Virus record (IMG/VR): IMGVR_UViG_3300035698_011044
Location: 23,554 to 87,553 of that record
DNA: 64,000 nucleotides
Direction: 5' to 3' (one strand)
Source of the DNA: a virus
Shown here: in pieces, positions 3,554 to 54,419 of the stretch
Position numbering within the stretch: the stretch's first letter is position 1
Layout of the letters: every line of letters begins with the position of its first letter
The notes under the pieces: generated by a model
The model's database searches: none
Seen by the model: the letters and a program-made list of their open reading frames with translations, nothing else
What the model was told of the DNA's origin: nothing
Made by a program: the position numbers and the translations under genes

Positions 3554-3900
3554 TATTTCTTGCCAGCCCTGAAAGCGTTAAGCTCTGTCTCCATGTTGAT
3601 AGCAAGCTGACGATACTGATCTCTCTCGTTTGCAATAGCATTGAAAGATGTCTGAATGCCGTACAAGACATCCATGATCTCAAGGTTCTGCCTGTTCTTC
3701 GTGTTGAAGAGCTTGCTCATGTTGGCAACAACTTCATCAATCGTCGGCAGTCTCTGCTCCGGCTGCTGAGGGGCTGCAGGAGTCTGTGGGATCGCAGGAG
3801 CTGGCGGAACTACTGGGGCAGCCTTCTCCGGAGTTACCGGTGGGGTCATCGGGATGACGTTTGTTGTTAGGTTCTTTCTTGCTGGTTTCTTGTTGCTCAT
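3553..3900 (-). CDS. hypothetical Pro-rich/coiled-coil protein
   Basis: ORF with GGAGG before the ATG at 3900; stop coupled to next gene. Confidence 0.55.
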   Translation of the reverse strand: MSNKKPARKNLTTNVIPMTPPVTPEKAAPVVPPAPAIPQTPAAPQQPEQRLPTIDEVVANMSKLFNTKNRQNLEIMDVLYGIQTSFNAIANERDQYRQLAINMETELNAFRAGKK

Positions 3901-4192
3901 TACGAGCCTCCTTGTAGGTGGTTGAACATTCGGTTCCATCATCTATTACTAAAACATTTATTGATACAGTTTCTTTTCCAGTATCACCAGTCCCCTTGCA
4001 ACACGGGCAAGTTATAAGATTAAACGAGATATTCATAAGGTGTCCAGGCTCAGTAGAAAATCCGTTCCCACCTCGAATTGTAGTTGATGTCCTATTCCAT
4101 ATCTTCTGAAACCCATCACAAACAGGACAACTGTATGTGTCCTTATTTCCTGGCCATAGAGGAAGTTTTGCTGGTATAAAACCTGACATCAT
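3737..4192 (-). CDS. hypothetical protein with DnaJ-type zinc-finger motifs
   Basis: CPVCDG and CPCCKGTG; 3' part overlaps the next ORF. Confidence 0.5.
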   Translation of the reverse strand: MMSGFIPAKLPLWPGNKDTYSCPVCDGFQKIWNRTSTTIRGGNGFSTEPGHLMNISFNLITCPCCKGTGDTGKETVSINVLVIDDGTECSTTYKEARNEQQETSKKEPNNKRHPDDPTGNSGEGCPSSSASSCDPTDSCSPSAAGAETADD

Positions 4193-4752
4193 TTCACCGC
4201 CTCCACGTTAAGACTTATAAGAGTCCCATGCACCTTATCCATATGAGGAATGTATGCTTGGGAGTAATCATCAATATCTGCATGCTCGGTCTTGCGCCAG
4301 TCGTACTTGCGAACTTTACTGAACCCGGCGTTTACAAGTTCGTAGGAGAGAAGATCGTATGTAAATAGAGAATTATGGATATTGTAAAGATAGTCCTGCC
4401 GTCCCATAATTGGACCAACAACTTCGCTGAAATTCTTGCGTGTCATATAAACCTTACACAACGCATCGAAATCTGGAACAGATATTCGACAAACTCCTCC
4501 ATAATCAAGAACTCTTGCCCACTCACGCAAAGCATGCCGAACATGTCTGCGAGGGAAGTGTTCGAGAACATGACATACATAAACTAATATCGCGCTTCCG
4601 TCTTCAAATAGCTCAAGGTCTTCGACTGGAGACTGGCAATTAATATGCGGATATTCTACAGCATCTATATGATGAGTAAAGCGATCTCCATAATCACGTT
4701 TTCCGCACCCCAGACATAGCCTTAAACCAAATCCTTCAATAGTTTTTCCCAC
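4189..4752 (-). CDS. SAM-dependent methyltransferase (type 11-like)
   Basis: LCLGCG, CHVLEH, GGVCRISVPD, SLNVEAVK end. Confidence 0.85.
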   Translation of the reverse strand: MGKTIEGFGLRLCLGCGKRDYGDRFTHHIDAVEYPHINCQSPVEDLELFEDGSAILVYVCHVLEHFPRRHVRHALREWARVLDYGGVCRISVPDFDALCKVYMTRKNFSEVVGPIMGRQDYLYNIHNSLFTYDLLSYELVNAGFSKVRKYDWRKTEHADIDDYSQAYIPHMDKVHGTLISLNVEAVK

Positions 4753-38212: not shown

Positions 38213-38661
38213 TTACGCTCCTTAACGGCAGTGAGAATGCTGTCGAGGAGTTGTGCGGTCTTACCCTCTTCGTGCTGCAGGCGGATGTATTTGACATCAT
38301 CGCTAACACGCTGAACACTCAGCTTGGTTTCTGAGAGAGCATCTTTAATCTTATCTTGCTCTCCTTTGATATACTCATCTTCTTTCTGCGTATCATTTCT
38401 GAGATTAGTCTGTTCTTTCTCAATGGCAATCTGCCTGGTAATAATCGCCCCTTTATCTGGACACACAAATCCATTCGAGCGCTTTACTTTCCCGAAAGTT
38501 AGTCGGACATTTGAAAATCTTCCTTTAACAAAAAGGAATCCAGCAACACTCAAGATCCCTCCTCCCAAAAAAGTGCTAACCTGGGCAATCGTGTTTACCC
38601 CAGACTGACCATGTAGGACTGCTGCGCGTAGGGAATCTATCATAACTGTCAATGTATCCAT
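38209..38661 (-). CDS. membrane protein with coiled coil, holin-like by position
   Basis: One TM segment; coupled to the amidase. Confidence 0.5.
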   Translation of the reverse strand: MDTLTVMIDSLRAAVLHGQSGVNTIAQVSTFLGGGILSVAGFLFVKGRFSNVRLTFGKVKRSNGFVCPDKGAIITRQIAIEKEQTNLRNDTQKEDEYIKGEQDKIKDALSETKLSVQRVSDDVKYIRLQHEEGKTAQLLDSILTAVKERK

Positions 38662-41600
38662 TATTTGCCTTTCCGCATTTTTTTAACAAACTTCTTCTGA
38701 TCCTCCAAGATCTCTTTGCGCTTATCTTGGTACTCCTTCAAAGTATACTCTCCACTCTTTCGCTTCTTCTGAGCGTTACTGAGACGGACCTGGAAATTAG
38801 TCTTCACGGATTTCCCGCTCTTAGTCTTTCCTTGGCCGAGATTCTTGCTGAGATATTTATTTATTTTGGTGTAATCCTTTGCAAATTCCTTTAGCCCATA
38901 CTCTTTTCGGAATTTAAGTCTTTTTTCCGGAGAGAGCTTCTTGTACCACTCCTTAAAAGCAACCCTATCTTCCCATTTAGTAGATCTCTCAAGACGCTTC
39001 TTCATCGCTCCAGCTATTGAAGGATCTTTATCCATAACATACTTGGAATAAACAAGCGCCCTATGCTCTTTAATCTTCTCCCAAGTTGAAAGCTTTTCGC
39101 CTTCCTTGGTGTAAACTTTGGAAACTCTCATGCCTCCAACAATCAGCTTTTTAACTGCAGGATAACCCTGCCCACTGATTTTCATAAAAGATCTGAACGC
39201 CTTCTTGGGATTGTGTTGTGCAATACTAAGCGCAGCATCCTCCACTGGCCCCAATGAAGGAGGAAGTAGATTTAAGAGCATCTCCGCAGAACCGTAGTCC
39301 ACTTTTCCACCACGCGCCTTGATCGTTGCGTTAGTAATCCCCATCATGACTGAGTCTACCATCCTATTCCCAATTGCAAACCCTCCAGTAAACTGTGACA
39401 CAAAGAATTTTGCAAATCCCTCCGGGTCTTCCCATGGTGGTCTAAGTGCACTAGAAATCCAATACATGTACGTTGCCGGTAGGAGCGCAAGCAGTGACGC
39501 ATGCAAAAGGTTTTGACCGATATCACGTTTGCCTGTAGTCTGCTTATAGTCAATCAACATATTCGCATCTTGATTAAGCTGATTTGTAAATACTGTATAA
39601 GCTCTTGCAAGTCCGTTTCCTCGATATATAGCTGGAAGATGAACCAGACCACCCATTGGCTGAGTTCTCCTTATAACAGAATTAGCAGCTTTAATCGCAG
39701 TCTTTTCATTACCCGACTTCGCCATCACTTCGTGGTACTTGCCATACCATAAGATTGTCGTTGTCATCATATCCGCTTTTGTGATAAATGACATCGAAAA
39801 CTCTCTGACTTTCTCAAGCGCATCGACAGCTTTATCTTTAGCCATCTTAGTTCTCTGAAGAAGGGTCTTTTCGTTTATAGGAGTACCGTCCTGCTTCATC
39901 TGCTTAAGTTCTGATTTAGATATCCCAAGAGCTTCCGGAATAAGCTTCTTCTCCGCCATCTCCGCCATCTCGCGCTCATAACTCGTTGCACGATTCCGCA
40001 TCATAACGCTTTTCTCTTTAACAAAAGCCTCTTGAGCAGATCTGCCAGTCGCATACTTTCTGATGGAATGTGCGAGAGCCCCCTTATTGACCTCTTTTGA
40101 TCCCTGGAAAAAGGAGGCTGGCTGTTTTGCAACAGTTATAAGATTGAATCCAAGAGCGTAAGTCATATACTTGTTTCTAAGCCAGTCACTGGCTTGGTCG
40201 AGAACGTTTTCAGAAGCACCAATTCGACCATAAGCAGCAGCTCTCAGCCAATCGTTAAGCTGCAGAGAATATTCGGTGTTGCGATCATCCATAGCTTTTT
40301 TGACTTCAGTCTTGTTGAGGAACTGATTAACATCGCGCACTATGTCATTGTATGCAATGTAATGCTCGGATTGTCTAATGCTTTTAACCGTAGTTCCAAA
40401 GTAATCAAGTTCTGCAAAGGCAGCTTTGGAATTAACACGACTCTTAGTCATACCCTTCTTGATACTTGCCTGTCTGGAAGTGAATCTAGCGAGAAGATCT
40501 GCTGCCACGGCATTCTCAGCACGGTCAGTTTGCAGATTGGAAATTGGAAAGTAGTTGTGCTCTTTAGGCATATCTACATCATGCTCCCGAGCAAATACTG
40601 CACCCACCCGATCATACTGGGTATTATCAAAATAATCGATCATATCGTCTACAGATTTTCTGTGTTTTGCAGGAAGTTTATCCAAGACTTCTTCTATGAC
40701 ACTATCATATATGCCAGATCCATATAGATGAGATCTGTTCCCTGGATTCTTGGAATTGGCGTAGATAAACATCATCTGGTTGAGAGTGAGCTGGATTTTT
40801 TCTTTGAGCCCTTTCCCCGTATCATCAACAGTTTCATAAGTCAGCTCCATATAAGGCTCAGATAGCGCTTTCGCCACATCAATTCCCGCATGGATCTTCT
40901 GGAACTCTTTGACTGCCACCTCAGTATTGACCAACTGCGCCTCTTCAGCCTCAAGAATTTTATCAAAAACATTCCTCTTAAATACTGAATCTTCATTATA
41001 TCCAACTAAGAGATCATTCATCCTCTCAGGACGAACATGGTCCCAAGCAAACTTCTTTAACCAGTTTCGCCTTTTGCGCCCTTCTACAGACTTCTTGAAC
41101 CCACTCTTGTACTCCGGAGGATCGGTAATTGCCTCAATTTCTTTAACGGCTTTTTCAGCATCCTCTGCGAGCATCTCTTGCTTTTCAGTTTCTTCACGCT
41201 GCTTCTTGGTATATCCGTCAATCTTGATCTCATTGATATTCTTCACAACCTGCCGGAGTTGATCGTTATCCATATCATTTAAAGTGGCCTTAAATGTCTT
41301 GCGAAGATCGTTAGCTATTGCAGAGTCCATTGCGCGGTTTGGATTCTCAATGTACCAGTTAAGAGTCTTCTCGACATTATCAAGATCTTTGGGAGTCGCA
41401 TCGGTGAGAGCCATCAAATACGCTTTGAGCTTTCGATTTGAATTGAGATCTGTCCGGCTCTGGCGAGTCTTGCCTTCCAATCTCTTCAGACGCATTCGTT
41501 CCGCCATGATACGCTTCATTACCTGCTTCTTGAGCACTGAGTTCTGTCTCTTGTACAGAACTACGTCCATGGTCTCTAGCGCCTTCCTGAAGGCAGATAC

Positions 41601-44600
41601 TGTTTTGACATTTTTCATCAAAGTATCTACACGATTCCGAGGTTCCCCACGAAGTCCGATCTTCTTAGCGTAATCATAGATCATGTTTGTGAGCTTTTCC
41701 TGAAGATCGGCGCTGTAATTCAACATCTCGACTTCCATCTCAGCCCGCTGTCCGAGAACTTCATCGGAGACGTAACGGAGTTTGGAGCGGAGAGAGCGTG
41801 CTGCCTTCTCAATTTTATCTACCTGAGAAATAGTAGGTATTGGTTTTGGGACAGCTTTCTTGCGAGACGTCTTCTTTTCGCCATCTTTGTCGTCAGCGAT
41901 TTTTGCAAAGCGAATGTCGGGAGATTCTGCGTCAAATGTTCCAATGTTGCCAGTGGCAGATTTGATCTGGTTGGATTCAAACACGGCAATCTGACCGAAA
42001 GTTCCATCTGGAAATTCTTCAACAATACCATCAAAGCCATCTTTCTTAATTTGAGTGTCTAGCGACTTGATTGCTTTGTCACGTTCTTGCCTTGTCAAAT
42101 CAGGGTCAAACATCTCTTTACCGGTCAAATCTTTAAACCGTTCCTTGTATAGCTTTTCTGAGATAGGGTTTTCTACACTTAAATACACAGGCATAACATT
42201 AGGAGTTTTCCCCAGTTTTCTATTAGGAGCTCCCTCTGCAAATAGGGAGGCTGATTTTTCTGAGCCTGTAAAGTAAAATTTTCTAGCACCAAGACCTAGG
42301 CCCCTTCTCCGGCCTTCTAAGTCCTTTGCTTTAGCTAGAGAAAACTCGGTAATTCCGTTTCCTGTCCCATGATAAACAACAACAGGCTCACCACTCTTGT
42401 TCACAACTTTTGAATCCTTGAACCACTTCTTAAATGCAGGCGTTTCGGTTTGGTCATCAGAAGTCTTCGCGAACATAGGTTGTCCTGCATACTGAAGATC
42501 GTAGGCCATGTTACCGGAGAGAGATATTGACTGCTGATCAGTATTTCCAAGCATCACATCCTCAACCTTATTGCCCCACTTCTTAGCGTACTTGTTGAGG
42601 AAGTTCGGGATAGTTTTATCGTAGAGATTGACAGCCCACTCACCACCCATTTTGAGATCCTCACCCTCAAGCTTCGATTCTCCCTTCGCATCCATAATCT
42701 TCTTGGCAATTTTTTTTCCAACAACTTGATCGATAGTTCTGCCGACAGTGCTGCCAACCATAGAGGACTCGGTTATCTTCCCGTCCTTATCAAGAGAGAA
42801 GGAAAAGTCTGAGTTATTATCCATAAGAATGTAAACATCACGCCCACCCTCTTTTGGATTAACCCTAACGTGATCAATCTTCTTCTCCAACGAGTACCGA
42901 TCTGCAGTCTGCTTACCGTTAATCCATGCTACGCGATCATAGCCTTCATCGGCAGCTTTGCGGAGAATGTTTTTGAGAACGTATTCGTGCCATGCTCGGC
43001 GGTGAGGAAAGGGTTTGATTCCCTTTGCATCGAGACTTTTTTCTTGAAGCGACTTTCCAACTTTATCTTTAAGAATCTTCTGGTGTTCCTTTTCTTCTTT
43101 CGATAATTCTGGACCATCCCATGTTCTCCGATTTAATTCTCGCAACTCTTTTTCTTCTTTATCAAGAAGTTTCTCAAGGTCTTTTTGTACTCCTCTTTTC
43201 CTGATATCTCTCGCCCAGTCGCTCTGAATCTCCTCGATGAAGAGAACGCGCTCTCCGTCAGGAGTAACACGATCATTTAGCCTGGCGTGAGCAAAGACGT
43301 TGGGTTGTTCCCAGTGGCCAGACTTGTATGCTGTTTCTTTATGATTTTCCCGTGCATTTTCAAGAGCCTCTTCTTTTGTCACTCCGGTTCCAAGAGCAAC
43401 ATGGTTTTTAGCAAGAACATAATATCTATCGTTGTCGCTGTTCATGACAACCCTTACATCTGCAGGAAGAGGTTTGGTTGTAATCGGCATCCGAAACAGA
43501 ACCTCTTTGTAATTCGTTCCGCCTGGGAGAACATAGCTACCATGCTCAGTCAAACCTTCTTCGCGATTTTCTCTAAATTCTTCTCGCCTAGACTCTAAAA
43601 TATCTGGAGCTTCATTTTCAGCTATATAACGAGCACCTTGCTCAATCACATCTTTAGGAATAAGCTCAAATATATCCTCATCAGAAATGTCGAAAAGTTC
43701 TACCAATTCATCGCTATCCATATCTAAAGGATCGTCGTCTACATTGCGTGTTACATTATTATGTTTTAGAGTCCACACAGTCTCTCCGTCATCAGACTCT
43801 TTTTCTATTACGCTCTCTCTTATATCGTCAGCCACTTTCATTTTTTGAGATTGCATCTCATCAAACCAATACTCGCCATCTGCCAAACCTGGACTAAGCG
43901 CCTCCTTATACAAGTCATCGGTTACACTTTCTAATGTAGGCATAGTGGTAAGACCTTCGTCTAGCACAGTCTCCTCAACCGTAACCTGATTGCTCTTCAC
44001 GAAGTCCAGAACTTCAGTCTTCGTAGCTTTCGGATTCTCATCCAGCCACTCGTTCAGTCCCATCCACTCGATCTCAGCCTTTTTGAGCTGCTCCTTCTTG
44101 ATCATCGATTTGATCTGAGCAACTACGCCCTTTTCCTGCTTAAGCTCGGAGATCTTCTGCTCGGTAGGGGAGAAAAATGGATCTACCTTTTCGCGTTCTG
44201 CGAAGCGAATATCGGGATTAGTCTCTTCAAAAGTCCCGACGTTATCTGTAGCAGACTTGATTTGAGTAGGAAACCATGCCACATAATGTTTATGATCATC
44301 TCCAAAGTCCATCACAACGCCATCGTATCCAAGAACTTTATTCACAGCTTCTCTGAATTCAGTTGAGTCATCACCAAAGAAATCGCCTTCAAGAGACATT
44401 AGCGATGCTCCAGTGTAATTTTCCGCAACTTGGTCAATCATCCAGTCCTGTGGACCTTCGTCCCAATACTCCTCATGCCAGTCGCCAAGCGGAGACTCTT
44501 CTTTGTGCATAATGTCGGGAGCCATTCTTAATAGAGCAGCAGCATCTTCCTGCGTTAGATCTACATCCGATTCTCTTAAGTTGGAACCACTAACAATAAT

Positions 44601-47600
44601 AGGTTTCTGAATACTCAAGAAAGCGTCCATAACATTCGGACTATCTTCCCCGCCTGGTTTGTCCATCAGCTTACCAGTACGCGGATCTTGCAATTTTCCA
44701 GTCTGATATCCTTCGGCCTCACTCTTTTTCGTCGTAAAGTAAAATCCGGAGCCAAGCTGATTGTTTCCTTGACCAGTAAACCCCTCACCAAACTCCGTTA
44801 TTGTTGTGCCTGTCCCATGATAAACAACTACAGGCTCACCATTCTCATCCACAACTTTTGAATCTCCGAACCAATTCTTAAACGCCTTAGAATCTACTTG
44901 TGGAACTACTGCAAATAGAGTGTTCACCGGAACGCGGGATGGCTTCAGAGTCTCCTTTAGAGCCTCTAGTCTCGTAGCGTAATTTTGGTGACCGGATGGC
45001 ATCATATCCTCTTTTAGGATATTTGTAACTCTCCAGCCGTCTCCGTCGTTTCTTGGAGTTATGATATTATAGTAGCTATCACCAGCAATATTGATCGGCT
45101 TATCGGCAGGGTATTCAGATTCCCACTTCTCAACCTTTTTGCGCCAGTCGCTCTTCTCCTTCAAATATTGGTTCAGATGGTCAGGTGTGTTTTCTTTTTC
45201 GGCCATATCATCAAGTTTGGCAAGCTCTGCCTGAGTTGCCTTTTTCCTAAAGGTGGACCGTGTTCCATATTTCGCAACAAGAGATTCTCTAAACTCAACA
45301 CTTGAGCCATGGCGAATCGGAATAGAAGACAACTCCTCAAAATCTGCCGGAGGAAGTATTGTAGCAATCCTCACCGCATCATTCTTCGCTAATCTTACAT
45401 CATTTTCACGAGCAACCTCTGTAGCACTCTTCTCAACTCCCGCCTTCTGCATCTCTTTAATAATCAAGCGAGTCATCTGCTCGGAATCCTTAATGTCAAC
45501 GCCGATACTGTTTAGGAAGTCGTACCAAATATCAAGTATTGTTTTGGAAAGCCCCTTCTTATCCGGAGAAGCGAGAGCGTCCTCAATGCTCTTTACCCAA
45601 AACTCCTCGAAGTGTACAGTCTTGTCTGAATAAGCTTTGAGAACTTGTTTCATAACCCTGGTGTTTTTTGCAGCTTTGAACGCCTTCTCCATTTTAGCTT
45701 TATGTTTCGGAGAAGTCTTTAAAAGATTCTTCAGTCCGATATGAGAAACTTCATGAGCGTAATAGCGAGCTACTTCTTCAGCAGAAAGCTTGTTGCTCAA
45801 ATAGATTGTAATCGGGCCAGTCTTCGGCATCAATACTGCAGCCTTATTATCTTTTCCAAGCTTAAAAGTCTTTTTAGTAAGCTTGCCGTTTTCATCACGG
45901 ACTACTGCCTCAAATTGATCAGCAAACTTAACTCTGATCCGCCCAAACTCGCTCTTGGGAATAATGCTTACAGACTTCTCGTATGTGTCGTTTATGTAGG
46001 TTACATCGCCAGCAGGAAAGCTCTTCCGGAAGAGAGAGACCTGCTCTGCTCCGTCAACAATTCCGGCCCCGCCCTCAAATAGAGGGAGTCCAGATATATT
46101 GGCGGTTCCACCCTTATTGTCTTTGAGATACTGGTCAACTTCCTTCTGTGTCTTCGAGCGCTCGTCTCCGTACTCGGTTCCTTCAAAGAGATCTCCAGTA
46201 GAGTCTTCTAAGAGGTCTTTCTTGAAGAAGACATCTGCAGCCTTAGAGATCTTCTGAACCTTCTTGGTCCGGTCGCCATCTTTCCGAGAGTCGTATTGGA
46301 CAAAAGGAACATCATTCATAGCAAGAATGTCTTTAACCTTTTGAGAAGTTCCCTTCGGAATAACCGCCCCAGAGAACTCTGAAAGCCTTACTCCACGTTG
46401 GATCTTAGCTTCAAAGTATTCTGTAGGCATATTTTGCAGGTCCGTAGCAAAAGACACAATGTCATCTATATCAGAATCTGAAATATTACTAAAATCATTT
46501 TTCTTAAGAGATCGTTCCATTGCAGAGCGTCCCTTACCGCTACCTGTATAATAATCATATATTGATTTACTTAAGTCATCGAGATGATATGTGCTGAAAG
46601 AATCTTTGTGGTAATACTTGTAATTTTCCTTTACCTTATCAGAGAGGTCAAAAAATCGGTCATTACTTGCATCTTTTAATTTATCAAACGCCTTACTCTC
46701 AACAATTCTTTCTTTAGCCTTACGCATTTCGTCTAAATTCTTAAATCGCTTTGCTCCTCGACTACGAGCTTTTGCAACGCTCGTTGTCATCGTATTTTCA
46801 GAACCAGTAATAGCTTGCCCGAGCATTATATCAATGGCACTATTAAGACTAAAGTCAACCTTCTTGCGACCTTTTTTATAATGAGGTTCGACAAATATCT
46901 TATCAGCAATATCGAGTGCCCACTCCTCAAATTTGTCTTTACCTAATTTTTTCACTGCACGGTCTATACGATCAACAGTTTTTCTCCGATCAAGAGTTTT
47001 TTTCTTCTGACTAATAGTTTTGTAGTCATCAAGAGCTTCAGCTAAAAAGTTATAGTAAACTATACCATCAAGACTATCTCGATTAAGCATATCCTGAGCA
47101 AGTTTTAAATAGTGCTTTCGATTAGCTTCTAAAACACGCTCTCTCGTTTCACCCGATTCCATTAAAGTTTTAACTCGATCGTCAGCATACTCTTCGGTAG
47201 CTTTGACTGCCACATCGTATAATTCCTTTCGGATACGATCTTCATTACTCGAATCAACCTTTTCTGTCTTAACAAGATTTTTAATGTAAGAAACTATCGA
47301 AGGCATCCCAGTTAGAAAGCCTCGAAGGTGAGCAGGACTGGTCGCAACTCTCACGCTCACATTATTATCTTCAAGGAACATCCCTCTAAAAGACTCGTCA
47401 TATCCCACTGACCTAAGAAACATTTTCTTGTCCGAATTGCGAATGTGTTCTTCAAGACTACTTTCTCCAGTTGTCATTTCGTATTTAAGCCGAGCTTCCG
47501 ATAGCTTTAATGAAAAATCATTAGACTCTTTATTATTTAACTTGTACTCGATTTTTGGAGATCTGGGGGAATAGATGTCAGCATCAAACACTTTTACAAA

Positions 47601-50600
47601 TTCAGGATCAACCATGCTTTTGTCAGCAATAAGAGAGATTTCACCAAAACCCTCAAACCCTATATCTTTTTGAACTATAGCCAAACTTGGAAGTGGTATT
47701 CCGCCAACCTCATCAATAAAAACGATGCTATTTTCATCAAGATTATGCATAGCGACAAGATCTTTTTCCTTCGGCTGAGGTTTTGCCATCTTCTCTTTGA
47801 TAACTCCTATGTATTCGTCCGGATTAGTTCGGCGAGCAAACATGAGATCGACCTCATCTACATCCTCGCCAATATTTGCTCCAAAGTCAAATCCAGAATC
47901 AGCCGTATCCGCCTCCACCTTTTTAGGAGAACGCTTCTCTTCAGCCTTGCCTTGAATGTCTTTGGCTACATCGTATCTCTCTTTGGCGGAAAGGTTCATG
48001 TTAATCAAAACCTGTTCACCAATTTCTGATCTTAACTTACGGGCATAAGAGCTACCCTCTTTGCCTTTTTTGATTGCAGAAATAGCGGCTCTAATTTGCG
48101 ATTTAGGAATATCGTACAAGTCGGAAAGATCCTGGGAGTCTAAGGATGCAATAACAGTTTCAAATTCTTTTTGGAGAGTTGGGAAGTCGGTAGGTTTTCC
48201 GGTTGCTGCCCATTTGGCAAGGCGATTCTTTTCGGCCTCTACGTTTCTTGTGGAACTGTCCCTGTACTTACTTAGCTCTGCACGAAGAGCAGTGTGAAGA
48301 GCTTTGGATCTAACGTAAGCATCAGAATCTTTTAGGCCCTTCTTTTCAAGCTTGGCCATATTATCTGATTGTGCAACCCGCTCAAGTTGAGCAGCGTCAT
48401 ACTTCGCCTCCCTATTCAGCGCTTGGTATTCTTTTGTAAATGATATGGCACGACCGCCAGTGTACTTCTCTGCGATAATATTAGTAGCGCCGAACTCGTG
48501 GATCTCTTTGGTCCGGCGTTCTTCGCCTACTTTACGTTCTTTTTCGGGAACTTTACGCTCGGCATCGGAAGTCCCTTCGCCTTGATCAGGTCCTCTACGC
48601 TCTTGTACGTTTTTCCGCCGTAAGATATCTTTACGTTTTGCAACTTGTTCATCTTCAGATCTCCCTTCGTTGGCTATTCTAATTAGCTCTTCAGTCTTGG
48701 GTGTTCCAATAACGTCCTGTATATTAGAATAGCTCTTTTTTAGTTTTTTGTCAATAACAAAAGAATTTTTACCTACACTTTTTTTACTCGACTTGAGCAA
48801 AAGATCTGCTGTAGGGAAATCCTCAGCAATAGCCATGCTGACTCCAAATGGTATTTCTTTACCGTCTGGGGTAGTTAGCGTTATGCTATTGGTGGCCTCG
48901 TGAATCTCTGCCATGTCTTTATTGAATTTCTCAATATTGTTAGGCGGGATTCTAAACGTAGGCCGGTTTTCGTCACCCCCAACATGGAAACCATGATGCC
49001 CTCTTTTCTCAAGTTCGGAATGAAAATGTTTCATCATAGATTTAGCAATCTTATCACCAAATTCCTGTCCCCATGCATCGTTAAGAATTTTAAAGTCATT
49101 AAAATCATAAGAACCATAGACGACATGATTACCATCCTCGTCTCTATTGTTGTTAGCTTCATGTTTGCGTTGCTCGCTAACCCAGTGTAATTGCCCATCA
49201 AGTCCCGAGATGGGATGTCTGCCAGCGACATCAGCCATCTCGACAACAACATCAGAAACATCAACCCCTTCTTCTTTGAGTCTTACAATGGATGGCATTC
49301 CCTCTATTTCCAAAGCGACTTCTTCCAGCCCTCGATTCTCATCTACAATAGGCTTTCCATCAGGAGACATCTTTAGGTCAGCCTGGGCATTGTTTTGGTC
49401 TGCATTTACCTCGACTGAAATTCCAGGAGCAACTTTTTCAGCTTTAGATATCTGGGCATTAACAACTTCAGCCCGCTTGTCGCTTTCGTTTAAACCTTCC
49501 GGCATCTCTGCAACTTCACCGGTAAGCTCAACGCCCTCAGTTTCGTCTTCAGCTACCTGATACAAATTGGTTACAATATCCTGTTCTTCTTCGGAGAGGG
49601 TGGGGAATATCTCCTCGCGTTGAGTCTCGGGGAGATTCTGGAAGGACTTCATAGCTTCGGCAGCTTGGTCATCATCCATATCCTCAAAAGCTTTTGCGCG
49701 GTCGTCTGCGGGGAGTAGGAATACGTTGGCCTCATCAAGCTCAACTTCTGCTTCAGGTTTAGCTTCGACTTGTTTTGTGACTGGAATACTCTGGGTTTCG
49801 TCAAGTCTTTTCTGGGCTTCGATATCACCTTTTTGTGCAGCCTGGGCAAGGTCAAAAACGTCTTGGTCTGAGAGAGGTTTCTTCTCTTCCGCAGGAACAA
49901 TCTTCTCAGCTTCTTTGGGTCCAGGAAGAACAGCTTTTGTAGGGTCAACTTTTTCTTCCGGAGCAATCTCTGGAGCGACTTCTTTTTTCCCAACCTTTGC
50001 ACGCCTAGCAGCCTTAACACTGCCGGCACCGAGTCCGAGAGCAGAAAGGATGAGCATTTGAGGAGCTGCTGAACTCATCTCCTCACCCATGTTTTTCATC
50101 TCACCCCAAACTATCTCGCCGAGATCTTTTTCCGAAAGTCCCTCAGCTTGCATTCCAAGCTCTGTGCCAAGATCGGTAATAATGCGCTGAACACCTTCTT
50201 CTGAAACTTCCTTAATAAAATCTTTTCCTTTTTCTTTTGCAAGTTTAACCAGAGTTTTCTTGAGTCCTTCACGAACCATTCCCTCGGTTAATTTTGAACC
50301 AACATTTGCAAGCTGTCCAAGCTGAAGTCTTTCAATGGAGGCGTATATTATACCGGTAACTGGAGCAATTTGTTTTGCTGTTTCATGGCTCACGCCAGCA
50401 TCGATCATGTCTGCATAGGTATCTCCAGCACCTTGCTTTGCCCACTCATTAAGTGACCATGCAGTACCAAGGATTGGGACAGCACTTTTAACTCCAGTAA
50501 GAACCATCGGAGAAAGCATTCTTACCGTATCAGCGTAAAGTTTTCCCAAACCTTTTTCGTCAAGAGTTTGAGCTCCCATTAAGGCTTCAAAGCGACCCTT

Positions 50601-51947
50601 TAGTTCGATAGCCTGCTTTGCACCCTCTTCATCGTCAGCAAGAACTCTCTCGGCAATATGCTTGGATAACACAAATCCAATCCGGCCTTGCTCCCACGCT
50701 TGGTAGGTTTTGTTGTCTGATTTTTGCAATGCTTTCATATCCTGCTCAATATTATACGACCTAAGTTCTGCGGGATCGAGAACCTCTGCAACTTTCAATA
50801 AGTGAGATGTAACACTTTCTCGGTCATATTTCTCACGAGCACCTTTTGCCCCGACTTCTCGAAGATAAGTATTGATAGCTTGAGTAGTTTCTGCGTCAGA
50901 TGGAATGCTCTCCGATTCAGGGAAATTATTTTCACTATAAATCGGATTGCCATCAGAATCAAATTCCATTCCTTCGAGAACAATGCCATATTCTTTCGCG
51001 AGTTGCTCACCTTTTTTGTATCGTTCTTCATATCCTTTTAAAACACCTTGCCTATTACCTTTCTTGTCTTCTCTCAAGAAATGGTTGAGGTCATCGGTCA
51101 TTGTCGCACCGCCGTCTCCTGACGCATCAAGAAGCGTGGTTATGCGCTCGCTAAGCTTGGGTTCATTGTCTTTGCCGTAAGTAACATCTGCAGGTTTTAG
51201 ATTAAGTAATTCAGAGATCTTTTTTCCATTGCTGTATTTGTCTGCATACTCACCCTGTCGAGGAGCCTGGGCTTGGATTGACTTTTTCCAGTCTTTAGGC
51301 TTAAGTATCGTTTCTCCGATAGATGCGCCTGTCCTGATAGCCTCACCCCACATTGGACTCGCAGAGTTAAGCATGCTAATCTTCTCTTTTATTGAAGATT
51401 GATCAACAATGGGATACTCTGAAATTTTGATCTCTTGCTCTTCTGTAGGCAAATCTTTTATTGACTTTGCAATAGTGATATAATCAACGTCGCCACGGAC
51501 AACTTCGGCTGGTTTTGATACATCTTTTGGTAGATTGACGCTATAGGCAGCATCAGCAAAAGGCTCTTCAGGCTTAAGCTCTGGAACTTGCGGCTGGGAT
51601 AATGGCTGACTAGGTGTTTGGCTCTCGAAAGATACGGGGTCTATCCCGCCACCAGCGACAGGTTCAACAGGCTCATCCTCAAAGTCCATTTGTCCTACAG
51701 GGATGTTTACCGGTCCAGCGCCAATAGGTTCTGGCTCTTCCTTAATGGGAGTGTTCCAGAGGTCGTCAAACGTCAGCGAAGATGAGGCTGTAGTTGGAGC
51801 CGGCAATGGAGCTGGAGCTGCAACAGGAGCAAGAGATGGGGCTGGAGCTTGTAGTTGAGCAAACGGATCTATCGGGGCTGGAGCTGTTGCCTCCGGAATA
51901 GGTTCTGTAGAAGCTGGTGCATTCCAAAGATCATCAAAAGTTACCAT
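38661..51947 (-). CDS. giant polyvalent protein (GGDEF-like, HExxH peptidase, two ART-like domains, other modules)
   Basis: 4428-aa open frame; DFNDFKILND..G...GD...GGDEN; AHEVSH...EE; two VVYHGT...FYFT...G(Y/F)DG...QIKSAT domains; IEEIQSDW module. Confidence 0.85.
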   Translation of the reverse strand: MVTFDDLWNAPASTEPIPEATAPAPIDPFAQLQAPAPSLAPVAAPAPLPAPTTASSSLTFDDLWNTPIKEEPEPIGAGPVNIPVGQMDFEDEPVEPVAGGGIDPVSFESQTPSQPLSQPQVPELKPEEPFADAAYSVNLPKDVSKPAEVVRGDVDYITIAKSIKDLPTEEQEIKISEYPIVDQSSIKEKISMLNSASPMWGEAIRTGASIGETILKPKDWKKSIQAQAPRQGEYADKYSNGKKISELLNLKPADVTYGKDNEPKLSERITTLLDASGDGGATMTDDLNHFLREDKKGNRQGVLKGYEERYKKGEQLAKEYGIVLEGMEFDSDGNPIYSENNFPESESIPSDAETTQAINTYLREVGAKGAREKYDRESVTSHLLKVAEVLDPAELRSYNIEQDMKALQKSDNKTYQAWEQGRIGFVLSKHIAERVLADDEEGAKQAIELKGRFEALMGAQTLDEKGLGKLYADTVRMLSPMVLTGVKSAVPILGTAWSLNEWAKQGAGDTYADMIDAGVSHETAKQIAPVTGIIYASIERLQLGQLANVGSKLTEGMVREGLKKTLVKLAKEKGKDFIKEVSEEGVQRIITDLGTELGMQAEGLSEKDLGEIVWGEMKNMGEEMSSAAPQMLILSALGLGAGSVKAARRAKVGKKEVAPEIAPEEKVDPTKAVLPGPKEAEKIVPAEEKKPLSDQDVFDLAQAAQKGDIEAQKRLDETQSIPVTKQVEAKPEAEVELDEANVFLLPADDRAKAFEDMDDDQAAEAMKSFQNLPETQREEIFPTLSEEEQDIVTNLYQVAEDETEGVELTGEVAEMPEGLNESDKRAEVVNAQISKAEKVAPGISVEVNADQNNAQADLKMSPDGKPIVDENRGLEEVALEIEGMPSIVRLKEEGVDVSDVVVEMADVAGRHPISGLDGQLHWVSEQRKHEANNNRDEDGNHVVYGSYDFNDFKILNDAWGQEFGDKIAKSMMKHFHSELEKRGHHGFHVGGDENRPTFRIPPNNIEKFNKDMAEIHEATNSITLTTPDGKEIPFGVSMAIAEDFPTADLLLKSSKKSVGKNSFVIDKKLKKSYSNIQDVIGTPKTEELIRIANEGRSEDEQVAKRKDILRRKNVQERRGPDQGEGTSDAERKVPEKERKVGEERRTKEIHEFGATNIIAEKYTGGRAISFTKEYQALNREAKYDAAQLERVAQSDNMAKLEKKGLKDSDAYVRSKALHTALRAELSKYRDSSTRNVEAEKNRLAKWAATGKPTDFPTLQKEFETVIASLDSQDLSDLYDIPKSQIRAAISAIKKGKEGSSYARKLRSEIGEQVLINMNLSAKERYDVAKDIQGKAEEKRSPKKVEADTADSGFDFGANIGEDVDEVDLMFARRTNPDEYIGVIKEKMAKPQPKEKDLVAMHNLDENSIVFIDEVGGIPLPSLAIVQKDIGFEGFGEISLIADKSMVDPEFVKVFDADIYSPRSPKIEYKLNNKESNDFSLKLSEARLKYEMTTGESSLEEHIRNSDKKMFLRSVGYDESFRGMFLEDNNVSVRVATSPAHLRGFLTGMPSIVSYIKNLVKTEKVDSSNEDRIRKELYDVAVKATEEYADDRVKTLMESGETRERVLEANRKHYLKLAQDMLNRDSLDGIVYYNFLAEALDDYKTISQKKKTLDRRKTVDRIDRAVKKLGKDKFEEWALDIADKIFVEPHYKKGRKKVDFSLNSAIDIMLGQAITGSENTMTTSVAKARSRGAKRFKNLDEMRKAKERIVESKAFDKLKDASNDRFFDLSDKVKENYKYYHKDSFSTYHLDDLSKSIYDYYTGSGKGRSAMERSLKKNDFSNISDSDIDDIVSFATDLQNMPTEYFEAKIQRGVRLSEFSGAVIPKGTSQKVKDILAMNDVPFVQYDSRKDGDRTKKVQKISKAADVFFKKDLLEDSTGDLFEGTEYGDERSKTQKEVDQYLKDNKGGTANISGLPLFEGGAGIVDGAEQVSLFRKSFPAGDVTYINDTYEKSVSIIPKSEFGRIRVKFADQFEAVVRDENGKLTKKTFKLGKDNKAAVLMPKTGPITIYLSNKLSAEEVARYYAHEVSHIGLKNLLKTSPKHKAKMEKAFKAAKNTRVMKQVLKAYSDKTVHFEEFWVKSIEDALASPDKKGLSKTILDIWYDFLNSIGVDIKDSEQMTRLIIKEMQKAGVEKSATEVARENDVRLAKNDAVRIATILPPADFEELSSIPIRHGSSVEFRESLVAKYGTRSTFRKKATQAELAKLDDMAEKENTPDHLNQYLKEKSDWRKKVEKWESEYPADKPINIAGDSYYNIITPRNDGDGWRVTNILKEDMMPSGHQNYATRLEALKETLKPSRVPVNTLFAVVPQVDSKAFKNWFGDSKVVDENGEPVVVYHGTGTTITEFGEGFTGQGNNQLGSGFYFTTKKSEAEGYQTGKLQDPRTGKLMDKPGGEDSPNVMDAFLSIQKPIIVSGSNLRESDVDLTQEDAAALLRMAPDIMHKEESPLGDWHEEYWDEGPQDWMIDQVAENYTGASLMSLEGDFFGDDSTEFREAVNKVLGYDGVVMDFGDDHKHYVAWFPTQIKSATDNVGTFEETNPDIRFAEREKVDPFFSPTEQKISELKQEKGVVAQIKSMIKKEQLKKAEIEWMGLNEWLDENPKATKTEVLDFVKSNQVTVEETVLDEGLTTMPTLESVTDDLYKEALSPGLADGEYWFDEMQSQKMKVADDIRESVIEKESDDGETVWTLKHNNVTRNVDDDPLDMDSDELVELFDISDEDIFELIPKDVIEQGARYIAENEAPDILESRREEFRENREEGLTEHGSYVLPGGTNYKEVLFRMPITTKPLPADVRVVMNSDNDRYYVLAKNHVALGTGVTKEEALENARENHKETAYKSGHWEQPNVFAHARLNDRVTPDGERVLFIEEIQSDWARDIRKRGVQKDLEKLLDKEEKELRELNRRTWDGPELSKEEKEHQKILKDKVGKSLQEKSLDAKGIKPFPHRRAWHEYVLKNILRKAADEGYDRVAWINGKQTADRYSLEKKIDHVRVNPKEGGRDVYILMDNNSDFSFSLDKDGKITESSMVGSTVGRTIDQVVGKKIAKKIMDAKGESKLEGEDLKMGGEWAVNLYDKTIPNFLNKYAKKWGNKVEDVMLGNTDQQSISLSGNMAYDLQYAGQPMFAKTSDDQTETPAFKKWFKDSKVVNKSGEPVVVYHGTGNGITEFSLAKAKDLEGRRRGLGLGARKFYFTGSEKSASLFAEGAPNRKLGKTPNVMPVYLSVENPISEKLYKERFKDLTGKEMFDPDLTRQERDKAIKSLDTQIKKDGFDGIVEEFPDGTFGQIAVFESNQIKSATGNIGTFDAESPDIRFAKIADDKDGEKKTSRKKAVPKPIPTISQVDKIEKAARSLRSKLRYVSDEVLGQRAEMEVEMLNYSADLQEKLTNMIYDYAKKIGLRGEPRNRVDTLMKNVKTVSAFRKALETMDVVLYKRQNSVLKKQVMKRIMAERMRLKRLEGKTRQSRTDLNSNRKLKAYLMALTDATPKDLDNVEKTLNWYIENPNRAMDSAIANDLRKTFKATLNDMDNDQLRQVVKNINEIKIDGYTKKQREETEKQEMLAEDAEKAVKEIEAITDPPEYKSGFKKSVEGRKRRNWLKKFAWDHVRPERMNDLLVGYNEDSVFKRNVFDKILEAEEAQLVNTEVAVKEFQKIHAGIDVAKALSEPYMELTYETVDDTGKGLKEKIQLTLNQMMFIYANSKNPGNRSHLYGSGIYDSVIEEVLDKLPAKHRKSVDDMIDYFDNTQYDRVGAVFAREHDVDMPKEHNYFPISNLQTDRAENAVAADLLARFTSRQASIKKGMTKSRVNSKAAFAELDYFGTTVKSIRQSEHYIAYNDIVRDVNQFLNKTEVKKAMDDRNTEYSLQLNDWLRAAAYGRIGASENVLDQASDWLRNKYMTYALGFNLITVAKQPASFFQGSKEVNKGALAHSIRKYATGRSAQEAFVKEKSVMMRNRATSYEREMAEMAEKKLIPEALGISKSELKQMKQDGTPINEKTLLQRTKMAKDKAVDALEKVREFSMSFITKADMMTTTILWYGKYHEVMAKSGNEKTAIKAANSVIRRTQPMGGLVHLPAIYRGNGLARAYTVFTNQLNQDANMLIDYKQTTGKRDIGQNLLHASLLALLPATYMYWISSALRPPWEDPEGFAKFFVSQFTGGFAIGNRMVDSVMMGITNATIKARGGKVDYGSAEMLLNLLPPSLGPVEDAALSIAQHNPKKAFRSFMKISGQGYPAVKKLIVGGMRVSKVYTKEGEKLSTWEKIKEHRALVYSKYVMDKDPSIAGAMKKRLERSTKWEDRVAFKEWYKKLSPEKRLKFRKEYGLKEFAKDYTKINKYLSKNLGQGKTKSGKSVKTNFQVRLSNAQKKRKSGEYTLKEYQDKRKEILEDQKKFVKKMRKGK

Positions 51948-51998: not shown

Positions 51999-53198
51999 TT
52001 ATCTTACTATATAGCCTGCCTGTTTAAGCATTTCTATTGCAGCAGTACGATCAGTCGTTTTCGCCTTAATCGCATTAAGCACCTTCTCGTGTTCTGGATT
52101 GTTAGGATCAAAAGGAATCGGAGCGCTTGGCTGAGGAACTCCAGCATTTGCACCAGGACCAGGAGCCTGTATAGGATTCGGAGCCTCGGTTTCTGCGTCA
52201 TCTGCCAATCCGGAAAACTTCAATGTCTGGCCTTTTTTGAGTGTTCCAAGCTTTGACCACTCTTGCTTGTTTGCAAGACTATTTAGTAGTTCAATTTTAT
52301 TTTCCAGTAAGACTTTAGCCTTGTGGTCTACTTCTGGAACAATCATCTCGAATGAATTAGGGTCAATAGTAGGATCTGGATTCAATACTTTTTTAAGCGC
52401 TTCTTTGGCTTTGGATGCCTGCAACTGATAGTCTCCAACTTGCTTGTCAATAATGCGCCGTTTCTCAGCCCTAGCAGCACCATCTTTCTCTTCCTGCATA
52501 GCCATTGTCTGGTAGCGAAGAGCTATCATTTGGTGCTTGTACCACTCGTTTGTCTCACTAGCATTCTTCTGTTTTAGGATATCTGCGCTAGAAGGATACT
52601 TGTTCATTGAAGACTGAACATCTGGTCTAAGCTGAACTCCTGGGGCAGCACTAAAAACCTTCGGAGCAATATCTTCATAGATTGTCCCCCTTGGAGCTTG
52701 GCTCATAATTTGAGCCTGCTTAGTCTGACCCTCTTGGATCTTAAGTTCTTTAGCCTTTTTGTCTGAAACTGCCTTTTGCTCTAAATATTTCCCAATACCA
52801 GTAGTCATGGATTGGTAATATTGATAAGGCTTAAATTGACCAGTAGCCATGTCATAAGAAAGCTCTTGTGGAGGAATCCACATTTTAATTTCTTCTCCAA
52901 AAGTTTTAACAGCATCATCATAAACTAGCTTGACTCCACGCTCACCTTTTGCTAAAATATTCTCAAATTCTTTTTTCATTTTACGGTTATGCACTTGTTT
53001 TTGAGCAATCCGTATTCCGTCCTCCATGCTACTAAAAACATTCCCGCCTGCAATTATACTTCCAGCCTTGGAGTTGTACTTAAGCTTAGGCGCAGGTGGA
53101 ATCTGCAAAGATTCTGCTATAGTGCTTGTTGGATATTTCTGCTCTGCAAAAAATTCTTGTGTATGCTCTGGATTATCTTTTAGATATGGATTTGCCAT
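51999..53198 (-). CDS. hypothetical helical protein, possible internal virion protein
   Basis: Position before the giant gene; Ala/Gln/Lys-rich. Confidence 0.55.
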   Translation of the reverse strand: MANPYLKDNPEHTQEFFAEQKYPTSTIAESLQIPPAPKLKYNSKAGSIIAGGNVFSSMEDGIRIAQKQVHNRKMKKEFENILAKGERGVKLVYDDAVKTFGEEIKMWIPPQELSYDMATGQFKPYQYYQSMTTGIGKYLEQKAVSDKKAKELKIQEGQTKQAQIMSQAPRGTIYEDIAPKVFSAAPGVQLRPDVQSSMNKYPSSADILKQKNASETNEWYKHQMIALRYQTMAMQEEKDGAARAEKRRIIDKQVGDYQLQASKAKEALKKVLNPDPTIDPNSFEMIVPEVDHKAKVLLENKIELLNSLANKQEWSKLGTLKKGQTLKFSGLADDAETEAPNPIQAPGPGANAGVPQPSAPIPFDPNNPEHEKVLNAIKAKTTDRTAAIEMLKQAGYIVR

Positions 53199-53201
53199 TT
53201 C

Positions 53202-54419
53202 TTATGCTCCTCTAAACATTTTCATTCTATCACTCACTCTACCCTTTTCAGCTCCACCTGCAGCTAAAAAGGCATCCATTATTTGTGATCGTCTTTCTTT
53301 CGCAGAAGTAATCTTCTTTTGTTTACTTTCCTTGTCTCTAGTTTCTCTCTTTGCCCTAATCGCTTTTCTTCCTAGCTTCTTTTCATCAAGGTACTTCTTG
53401 TATTTAGCAGCTTTAATTGTATCCTTCTTTATTGTCCACTGTTTCAACACGCGCTCATACTCTTCTCTGGCCTTGCGCCTATTTTCAGCATCTTCCTTCT
53501 CAGCTTTACCAAATCCCGAAACACCACTCACAAGTCCACCAAGAGCTCCAACAACAGTTCCAATAACAGTTCCCCATCCAGGAAGAACTGACGATCCGAT
53601 TTTAGCCCCTTTTATTGCTCCCTCACCTCCCTTGTGGTGAGCATACTCAAACATCCCTGGATGCTTTTTAGTGGCAGCCGCACCAATACCAACAAAAGGA
53701 TTGCCAAGTCCAGCAGCTACAGCAGAATACCCCTTTATATTTTTATCTTTAGAAAGAGCTCCGCCAGTAAGAGAGGCGTCAACTAAAGAACCTGTTACAG
53801 TAGGCATATTATCAAGATAAGTTTCGATCTCTGGTCTCGTCTCAATATCATTAGGATTCATCCAGTATTTGCCTTCATTTTTCCAATCTTCCATATCCTT
53901 TTCGTAGGTATCTATAGCTTCCTGAGCTTTTTTAGCAACAATATTAGTTACCATTGATCCACCAATCTTAAGCGCTCCACCAGCATCAAGACCACCTTCG
54001 CCACCAATAATGCCACCCTTACCATCTTCCGACCCACTATCTGTTCTGCTATCTTGGATACGCGCCATAGCCCTTTGAAGAAAATTCATATCATCATAAG
54101 TCTGACCACTAGCAAATCCTTTTGCTTCATCACTTTCTCCAAAAGTAATCGCTTTGCCCATATCTTTAGAAAAAGATCCACCAAGTTCGGGAGTATCTCC
54201 ACCAGATTCATCTAATCGATTATTTATTAGCGAATTACCACCACCAAAAAGACGGTATCCAGGATCATCTTTTTGGTAAAAATTTTGCCCATAGAAACTT
54301 TGCCCAGCGTTGGGATCTGGCGCATTTCCTCCAATAGTATTTGTAGTAACCTTACTGAGCTCTTCTGGGTCATATCCCTTCGGATACACAGACCCTAATC
54401 TACTGTAATCCATAGCCAT
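53202..54419 (-). CDS. glycine-zipper protein, probable DNA ejection/pilot protein
   Basis: GAKIGSSVLPGWGTVIGTVVGALGGLVSG followed by a charged coil. Confidence 0.6.
   Translation of the reverse strand: MAMDYSRLGSVYPKGYDPEELSKVTTNTIGGNAPDPNAGQSFYGQNFYQKDDPGYRLFGGGNSLINNRLDESGGDTPELGGSFSKDMGKAITFGESDEAKGFASGQTYDDMNFLQRAMARIQDSRTDSGSEDGKGGIIGGEGGLDAGGALKIGGSMVTNIVAKKAQEAIDTYEKDMEDWKNEGKYWMNPNDIETRPEIETYLDNMPTVTGSLVDASLTGGALSKDKNIKGYSAVAAGLGNPFVGIGAAATKKHPGMFEYAHHKGGEGAIKGAKIGSSVLPGWGTVIGTVVGALGGLVSGVSGFGKAEKEDAENRRKAREEYERVLKQWTIKKDTIKAAKYKKYLDEKKLGRKAIRAKRETRDKESKQKKITSAKERRSQIMDAFLAAGGAEKGRVSDRMKMFRGA

Follow-up and report, generated by a model that had tools for sequence, protein, structure and literature searches.

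The window analysed here is a 64,000-nucleotide stretch of an IMG/VR virus record (IMGVR_UViG_3300035698_011044, positions 23,554 to 87,553), and all coordinates below are positions within it. The full record is 87,553 bp long and bounded by direct terminal repeats; the same genome carries portal and major head protein genes, together with genes for an endolysin, an Erf-like annealing protein, an exonuclease and a DnaB-like helicase. Because the portal has no tblastn match among 50,697 GenBank phage records and the DNA matches to the crAss-like phages cr10_1 and cr271_1 are short ones only, we regard the source as an uncultured phage, far from any named one. Our subject is one minus-strand gene encoding a protein of 4,428 residues, and within it eight short peptides that lie at the seams between its modules and are possibly cut by a zincin-like peptidase module built into the same chain.

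This protein adds a new member to the polyvalent proteins as defined by Iyer, Burroughs, Anand, de Souza and Aravind (2017, PMC5512222). As in the polyvalent proteins described in the text of that paper, which are phage-encoded and combine many disparate domains including ART-PolyVal, PBECR nuclease, GGDEF-type and zincin-like ones, the single chain holds at least two disparate activities (two copies of ART-PolyVal, PBECR5, a GGDEF-like stretch and an HExxH module), and it is encoded on a virus record with portal and major head protein genes, where polyvalent proteins are encoded by phages, plasmids or conjugative elements. ART-PolyVal (PF18760) scores 150.3 bits on the whole protein against a cut-off of 31.2, both matches spanning the full profile (1-140 of 140) at 90.4 and 85.8 bits, and Pfam PBECR5 scores 85.8 bits against a cut-off of 25. 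The GGDEF-like stretch reaches 20.6 bits with Pfam on the whole protein, and NCBIfam diguanylate-cyclase matches are weak. PHROGs matched the giant protein with families of unknown function only.

For comparison we used the best 120 of 371 matches (E<=1e-5) to residues 1360-3360 among 5.8 billion proteins, all of them giants. BLASTP of the window protein against the 119 other giants gave 578 high-scoring segment pairs (HSPs), some of which are cited with the features below, arranged from the N-terminus.

38661..51947, minus strand: polyvalent protein gene (P0001), 4,428 residues, from an open reading frame (ORF) and its translation; Pfam ART-PolyVal twice and PBECR5 above cut-offs.
48969..49169, minus strand: GGDEF-like stretch, residues 927-993; Pfam GGDEF 24.1 bits on the segment, cut-off 23.8.
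47829..47849, minus strand: seam 1, DLMFARR, residues 1367-1373; precedes the PBECR5-containing module; 41 HSP starts within 0 to +30 residues.
46218..47828, minus strand: PBECR5-containing module, residues 1374-1910; Pfam PBECR5 at residues 1387-1610 (E 5.5e-24), phrog_22978 at residues 1390-1912.
46218..46235, minus strand: seam 2, DVFFKK, residues 1905-1910; closes the PBECR5-containing module; 24 HSP ends.
46023..46217, minus strand: 65-residue mini-module with three x-L-F motifs, residues 1911-1975; homologue matches span residues 1914-1980.
46023..46040, minus strand: seam 3, VSLFRK, residues 1970-1975; closes the mini-module.
45384..46022, minus strand: HExxH module, residues 1976-2188; AHEVSH at residues 2064-2069 (45741-45758).
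45384..45401, minus strand: seam 4, DVRLAK, residues 2183-2188; closes the HExxH module; the P0122 alignment stops at residue 2185.
44907..45383, minus strand: unnamed module or modules, residues 2189-2347; residues 2251-2334 match the stand-alone protein P0125.
45240..45257, minus strand: possible extra seam, STFRKK, residues 2231-2236; P0125 aligns from just past it.
44907..44924, minus strand: seam 5, NTLFAV, residues 2342-2347; 146 HSP starts within +30 residues.
44196..44906, minus strand: ART-PolyVal copy 1, residues 2348-2584; Pfam ART-PolyVal.
44196..44216, minus strand: seam 6, PDIRFAE, residues 2578-2584; closes ART copy 1; 82 HSP ends.
42465..44195, minus strand: module starting FFSPTEQ, residues 2585-3161, with no named family; HSPs to P0002, P0009, P0122 and P0023.
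42465..42482, minus strand: seam 7, QPMFAK, residues 3156-3161; closes the FFSPTEQ module; 166 HSP starts within +30 residues.
41901..42464, minus strand: ART-PolyVal copy 2, residues 3162-3349; best Pfam stretch at residues 3183-3338.
41901..41921, minus strand: seam 8, PDIRFAK, residues 3343-3349; closes ART copy 2; 135 HSP ends.
38664..41900, minus strand: C-terminal region, residues 3350-4428; phrog_9880 at residues 3555-4158; HSPs at 3386-4426 (P0002) and 2800-4283 (P0023).

The earlier note on this DNA had read the eight strings as a single recurrent motif, [DPNS]-x(1-2)-F-[ARK], at the boundaries of modules. All eight, and the AHEVSH site, lie in the translation of the one 4,428-residue ORF where that note had placed them, but the motif as first written is too loose to stand alone. 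Seven of the eight sites fit the pattern and DVRLAK, which has no F, does not; in 2,000 shuffles of the protein the 24 matches compare with 16.0 +/- 4.1, an excess in the predicted direction that is weak (P=0.04), and the 16 matches in residues 1360-3360 compare with 8.9 (P=0.03). Nine unlisted matches in the latter region fall within modules, two of them being the 'AFK' of the ART N-terminus. Tighter patterns are strongly enriched, but they were derived post hoc.

The positions themselves fare better, and the claim that the sites mark module boundaries is supported by the alignments. Among the HSP ends falling in residues 1360-3400, 254 of 546 lie within -3 to +6 residues of one of the eight sites, whose windows make up 6.0% of the region, and only one of 2,000 random placements did as well (P=0.0005); HSP starts lie 0 to +30 residues past a site in 372 of 554 cases, both counts being dominated by ART copies and non-independent. 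VSLFRK has a single HSP start and DVRLAK none, and the boundary status of these two rests on few homologues. A search of residues 1911-2347 against 1.84 billion representatives found only five relatives, and these split the stretch at the very sites that had been named: the 65-residue mini-module closes at VSLFRK, the HExxH module opens after it, and residue 2251 onward matches a stand-alone protein. This last relative, the 196-residue P0125, aligns from its residue 17 to window residues 2251-2334, so that its start falls just past STFRKK, and by this alignment STFRKK may be a ninth seam.

Gain and loss of modules should break at the motif if it marks seams, as the earlier note had anticipated, and one comparison bears this out. 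The window protein and P0122 differ by a cassette of about 399 residues, comprising an unnamed module and ART copy 1, one end of which falls within a few residues of DVRLAK and the other within a few residues of the position following PDIRFAE. P0122 itself passes directly from the HExxH module to a module starting FYSPTE, and the single seam there is KPLFSK. Judged by the alignments, then, the eight motifs are seams between modules. They also delimit modules without a named family, of which this protein has at least four, and would thereby be of use in annotation.

Two of the seams belong to ART-PolyVal copies, and the large number of ARTs in the giants (452 pieces in 113 of the 120) allowed us to see which part of the peptide belongs to the enzyme and which to the junction. 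Of 231 tails reaching the end of the profile, the 150 that could be anchored follow 'QIKSAxGNxGxF' with the consensus N-P-D-I-R-F-S; PDIRFAE and PDIRFAK are therefore the conserved ART-PolyVal tail, just past the end of the Pfam model. Two residues past the Ile the 150 tails have F (68), Y (27) or M (11), and the next position is S in 65 and Q in 39. An Ala after the aromatic is a flavour of the window protein (FAR, FAV, FAE, FAK and FAK) and is uncommon among other ART tails (8 of 150). Stand-alone ART-PolyVal proteins, represented by 40 short-protein matches of which 17 have a terminal tail, retain 'NP[D/N]I' and stop 2-8 residues later, and because of this we take 'PDI' to be the intrinsic end of the ART-PolyVal domain. 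The aromatic or Met two residues past the Ile behaves differently, being present in none of the 17 terminal tails and in 51 of 84 internal tails from an independent set of IMG/VR loci (Fisher p=1e-6), although the stand-alone ARTs may be partly one clade, which weakens the contrast somewhat. The description of the motif as purely a linker thus needs to be divided: the 'PDI' of two sites is part of the ART-PolyVal domain, and the aromatic part is junction-specific.

The same kind of peptide is found at modules that are unrelated to ARTs. At the end of the PBECR5 module the pattern [ILVMF].F[SAQRKMED] occurs in 34 of 39 distinct homologue windows, compared with 81 of 1,170 random windows, and the five misses read PRFQ, TLFQ, TLFS, SFSL and ELFQ; the peptide is present whether an ART, an 'FYS' module or something else follows. 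Upstream of the PBECR5 start, and whatever module precedes it, 15 of 39 windows match a strict pattern and 22 of 39 a broad one, as against 9% and 20% of random windows. The strict pattern also stands before the start of the 'FYS' module ([FY][FY]S..[EQ][KRQ]) in 14 of 31 cases (9% of random windows), and before ART starts in 38 of 154 (9-10% of random windows from the same proteins). A dipeptide scan of the 22 residues before ARTs with a non-ART predecessor found FS to be the most enriched (20/130 vs 172/3,900, p=2e-6). Many ARTs are preceded by other conserved N-terminal extensions. In homologues the end of the FFSPTEQ module reads G-[QL]-P-[ML]-F-[SA]-[KR]. Taken over these junctions, the peptide appears to be roughly [D/N/G]-hydrophobic-x-[F/Y/M]-[S/A/Q/R/K], and this much of the processed polyprotein proposed by the earlier note stands in a broad sense: a conserved short motif does lie at the junctions between functional units.

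Variants of the peptide are specific to the protein that carries them. ART copies matched for 20-39% identity in the core have tails that agree at 0.64-0.67 within proteins and at 0.27-0.30 between them, the pairs being non-independent and a few many-copy proteins weighing heavily. A protein's own ART-tail 3-mer, counted from the aromatic onward, reappears at 16 of the 125 non-ART seams compared, where permuting the proteins gives 1.6 and none of 2,000 permutations reaches 16. Comparison of PBECR5 ends in F-Q with ART tails in x-Q within the same protein gives an 8/0/3/12 table (p=3e-4, n=23), in that all 8 F-Q proteins have x-Q ART tails and 3 of the 15 others do; finer matches between PBECR5 end and ART tail include RFRV with RFRV and FSR with FSR. 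In the homologue P0007 a different repeated peptide, 'HD(E/S)(K/R)GRFASG', follows each ART tail in about ten copies, and gives a further case of a seam sequence private to its protein.

DNA exchange does not appear to maintain this uniformity. The earlier note had offered the motif alternatively as a homology handle for swapping cassettes, which is not borne out at the level of DNA in gene repeats, seam DNA or synonymous codons. Within the gene, DNA is repeated only across 96 nt of the ART core, where identity is 82%. The coding DNA of the two PDIRFA sites agrees at 16 of 18 nt, and the remaining six seams have no DNA in common. The same codon is used for the same residue at 17 of 37 seam positions and 43 of 76 in the ART core, a small sample of 7 within-locus pairs from 7 loci. 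We argue that these comparisons are best accounted for if seam similarity is kept by selection on the protein and not by DNA exchange.

If the peptide has a reader, a peptidase is an obvious candidate, and the remark that zinc-peptidase motifs are usual in such proteins proved correct, HExxH modules being near-universal (present in 97 of the 120 giants, where shuffling gives 6.2 +/- 2.4). They fall into a few recognisable classes. The window module reads HEVSH and its close homologues HEVAGH (P0122) and HEIGH (P0124), and all three share a conserved Glu some 45 residues downstream. By hhalign, a profile of the three sequences aligns with a zincin-like class marked by 'GHE' at 96.2% (E 2.6e-9, 139 columns) and with a 'PIHE' zincin-like class at 96.0%, neither being a named family. 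MPTase-PolyVal (PF18818) was unmatched in the whole protein (E<=0.1), the module (E<=1) and the genome (E<=0.1), so that the window module is not a member of the MPTase-PolyVal family treated in the text of PMC5512222. A search of the ESM Atlas with residues 870-1100 of P0124 gave unnamed clusters and one with LPD23 on 18% of its members, which is a lead only.

Seam variants track the class of zinc peptidase, or the lineage of the backbone. Of 25 proteins with one particular zincin class, 21 have I-L-x-Q tails, as against 0 of 60 others (p=3e-16), and the four exceptions are mis-classed or read IFYQ or ILEQ. Outside ARTs, hydrophobic-L-[FYM]-Q occurs 20 times in proteins of this class (6.9 expected by shuffling) and 13 times elsewhere (22.1 expected), even though the latter proteins are together three times longer. 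On a FastTree phylogeny of 134 ART cores, I-L-x-Q requires 18 changes, whereas shuffled states average 24.0 changes and never need fewer than 18. As a comparison of sequences, the association of zincin class and tail is suggestive of protease-substrate co-evolution, being what such co-evolution would look like.

Four properties of the peptide have to be explained together: it is conserved across unrelated modules, absent from the free-standing enzyme, protein-specific, and correlated with the class of peptidase. A peptide that is found at arbitrary seams, dispensable at free ends, uniform within a protein and kept at the protein level is best explained by one common reader, and our best reading is that the junction peptide is cut by the built-in zincin-like module, to which we assign a probability of about 0.42. 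The protein would then be a string of independent modules (GGDEF-like, PBECR5, mini-module, zincin-like HExxH, unnamed, ART, large unnamed, ART and C-terminal carrier), with an aromatic and a small residue added after 'P-D-I' only where another module follows. One common factor would read the junction peptide, the likeliest being the zincin-like peptidase module of the same protein. Zincins select mainly the residue after the scissile bond (P1'). The seam aromatic would sit at P1', the position such enzymes select, and the chain could be cut into separate enzymes either in the capsid or after ejection into the host. A narrower version, tentative and doubtful on present comparisons, is a private cutting code in which the seam peptide of each lineage is the cognate site of its own zincin-like peptidase and co-evolves with it: I-L-[F/Y/M]-Q would belong to one zincin class, I-R-[F/Y]-S to others, and F-A-[K/R/E] to this phage. 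If so, its own protease, and no other, would free about ten separate enzymes from the 4,428-residue precursor.

Several observations weigh against cleavage by the built-in module. The HExxH module of the window matches no Pfam peptidase family (module searched at E<=1) and has only two close homologues, P0122 and P0124. The I-L-x-Q zincin class also shares an N-terminal LPD22, and so is one backbone lineage, which confounds the association of class and tail; independent contrasts on supported branches number only 5, all in the same direction (p=0.0625). The peptide is non-universal, being carried by a quarter to a half of the tested junctions by the patterns used, and a five-residue profile of the ART tail was rejected as a general detector of seams (11/144 vs 2.7%, with medians unshifted). 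In P0016 the linker that follows is also duplicated, so that paralogy of the next module may explain part of the sharing within proteins. Hydropathy on either side of the eight sites is unremarkable, the stretch after PDIRFAK being the one exception. Finally, six of about 16 stand-alone ARTs start M-R-[Y/L]-[S/C/H]-[E/D], 12-14 residues before 'PxF', and internal seams show the same spacing to the ART 'PxF'; starts of the M-R-Y-[S/C/H]-E type would agree with the aromatic being structurally part of the module that follows.

The last two points bear directly on the main rival, a structural joint that is never cut, in which a terminal strand or cap packs on the neighbouring module and prevents interference in folding. 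We rate it as somewhat unlikely. Flanks that are not unusually hydrophilic and stand-alone ARTs that begin at the internal-seam spacing are as it would predict, as are an 'NP[DN]I' that ends stand-alone ARTs 2-8 residues before the stop, and is thus part of the fold, and local alignments that stop exactly on the motif, as a conserved last strand would give. It does not explain why the aromatic is missing in 17 of 17 terminal tails, from which it follows that the ART fold has no need of it, or why one kind of peptide flanks modules of unrelated sequence on both sides. The variant, moreover, is common to non-homologous modules of one protein and differs between proteins, as a strand intrinsic to a module would not, and several stand-alone ARTs start right at the domain without an N-terminal element.

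A common reader need not cut, and the peptide could be a linear docking or loading signal that is bound intact by a chaperone, by a component for capsid loading or ejection, or by a hub protein of the host, for instance the beta sliding clamp. Any common reader would fit a constraint that is protein-wide and junction-specific, and the mini-module provides a specific lead. Its three x-L-F motifs are GDLFEG, GLPLFEG and QVSLFRK, and its only relatives among the 1.84 billion representatives are in P0121 (two copies), P0122 and P0123; all 5 copies, counting that of the window, retain Q-x-x-L-F, and where the window has QVSLF as its last motif the four homologous copies have QLDLF, QEDLF, QLSLF and QKNLF. 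The consensus of the beta-clamp-binding pentapeptide is QL[SD]LF, and the QVSLF-type motif presumably resembles this bacterial pentapeptide. We nevertheless consider docking improbable as a general account, since a Gln at that place is lacking from most seams (DIRFS, ILYQ) and nothing explains the presence of such a motif at nearly every seam instead of once per protein.

Chance and a DNA handle are both disfavoured. That the strings have no common function, a hydrophobic strand followed by polar residues being common at the ends of domains and the matches being hand-picked from a loose pattern, agrees with the marginal excess of the loose motif (24 vs 16.0, P=0.04), with its nine unlisted matches inside modules and with broad patterns that match 9-21% of random windows. 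This explanation is quite improbable in the face of enrichments over matched random windows at p=1e-6 to 1e-13 and of an unbiased dipeptide scan that picks FS, and neither the contrast of terminal and internal tails nor the protein-specific variants can stem from selection by eye. Least probable of all is a recombination handle, in which short seam-DNA homology serves cassette exchange and the peptide is conserved as a by-product: module gain and loss at the seams, an Erf-like annealing protein and exonuclease in the phage and the uniformity of variants within a protein are compatible with it, but the only in-gene DNA repeat is the ART core, six seams share no DNA beyond the PDIRFA pair, codon identity at the seams (17/37) does not exceed that in the ART core (43/76), and the peptide is kept between proteins whose modules are about 30% identical and whose DNA homology is gone.

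Processing by a separate head protease, as in other phages, was considered for this phage and rejected. The internal proteins and Alt of phage T4 are packaged and processed by the head protease. Similar processing of packaged proteins is described for DdrB and DarA of phage P1 (PMC5512222). In such systems short conserved motifs mark the points at which capsid-borne, injected proteins are cleaved, and the seam peptide here is likewise short and conserved; the difference is that the window genome has no recognisable Peptidase_S78, S77 or ClpP head protease, the S77 search carrying little weight because it found no match in control genomes either. The seam pattern has no match in the major capsid protein and one match in the portal.

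Polyvalent proteins are among the largest and most varied proteins of phages and plasmids, and their processing by zincin-like peptidases was proposed by Iyer and colleagues with no site named in the text of that paper (PMC5512222). Its main text uses 'linker' 0 times and the ART and LPD sections there mention no tail motif, and the supplementary alignments may show the ART tail. We found no publication containing the strings NPDIRF, PDIRFS, DIRFSR or NPNILYQ, nor any study of junction motifs or cleavage in polyvalent proteins, so that as far as the searchable literature goes the junction peptide is a new element within the known polyvalent-protein idea. Cutting of these proteins by a zinc peptidase has been proposed since 2017 and never shown, and the seams give exact residues at which the proposal can be tested. 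A 2,811-residue polyvalent protein, gp47, is reported in virions of phi24B in a preprint whose available text makes no statement on cleavage of gp47 (10.64898/2026.04.10.717836).

Pseudomonas phage F116 provides a cultured parallel, and because it has the same seam it makes cleavage practically testable. Its gp60, like the window protein, is a large late protein whose gene lies immediately ahead of the lysis genes, with an ART-PolyVal domain ending in a 'PDILFSR' tail and two HExxH motifs; it differs in size (1,650 vs 4,428 residues), and BLASTP found zero similarity between the C-terminal region of the window protein and F116 gp60. Hardies et al. (2016, PMC4819975) describe the latter and its relatives as homologous to internal virion protein D of T7. 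According to the text of that paper, internal virion proteins carry domains whose destination is the cytoplasm, and phiRIO-1, which has no protease gene, gives no clear sign of proteolytic processing; F116 gp60 is not addressed there in this respect. We had also considered whether the break between F116 p59 and p60 is a natural split at a seam, and dropped it, as the end of p59 looks frameshifted and is uninformative. Giant virion proteins of crAss-like phages annotated as 'RNAP associated protein fused to zincin protease' (cr10_1, cr85_1, ctcc615) have tblastn matches to the window ART; Pfam scans of the window protein gave no RNA polymerase module, although no search was aimed at one.

A giant protein from a Massilia plasmid record has the same junction peptide in the form NPDIAFSR. 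The locus on Massilia plasmid NZ_CP024609.1 (L084) encodes a 5,555-residue 'PLxRFG domain-containing protein', in which PLxRFG ('tail-700') is the last ~680 residues and weak matches to the DISARM protein DrmD and a MADS methylase lie further up the chain. PLxRFG, or tail-700, was rejected as a seam-related element: it is the C-terminal domain of other giants, and the C-terminal region of the window protein lacks this NCBIfam domain.

The remaining parts of the window protein and its surroundings add a few observations. In an 86-sequence ART alignment (A2), H54 (the His of 'YHGT') and D167 are nearly invariant and may belong to the H-Y-D active site described in PMC5512222, and the A2 profile matched no PDB chain at E<=1. 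The C-terminal region, which is common to the closest relatives, is probably the carrier part; it contains the hydrophobic stretch LLHASLLALLPATYMYWISSAL at about 39400-39560 (residues ~4130-4180), a possible membrane segment of an ejection-protein-like carrier. At the N-terminus (~51750-51947, residues 1-66), '(V/L)TFDDLWN(A/T)P' occurs twice, about 55 residues apart, in an Ala/Pro-rich stretch that has no homologue coverage in BLAST of the window protein against the 119 giants, and the pair could be a tandem docking or loading element. The giant gene sits directly upstream of a 150-residue ORF and the endolysin gene, a placement also seen in F116; for delivery of the protein into the host together with the DNA, as in other polyvalent proteins, this position is the available indication. 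Three genes lie directly upstream of it, at 54438-58628 (1,396 residues), 53202-54419 (405 residues) and 51999-53198 (399 residues); they have no useful PHROG match and are probably further virion proteins of an undescribed kind.

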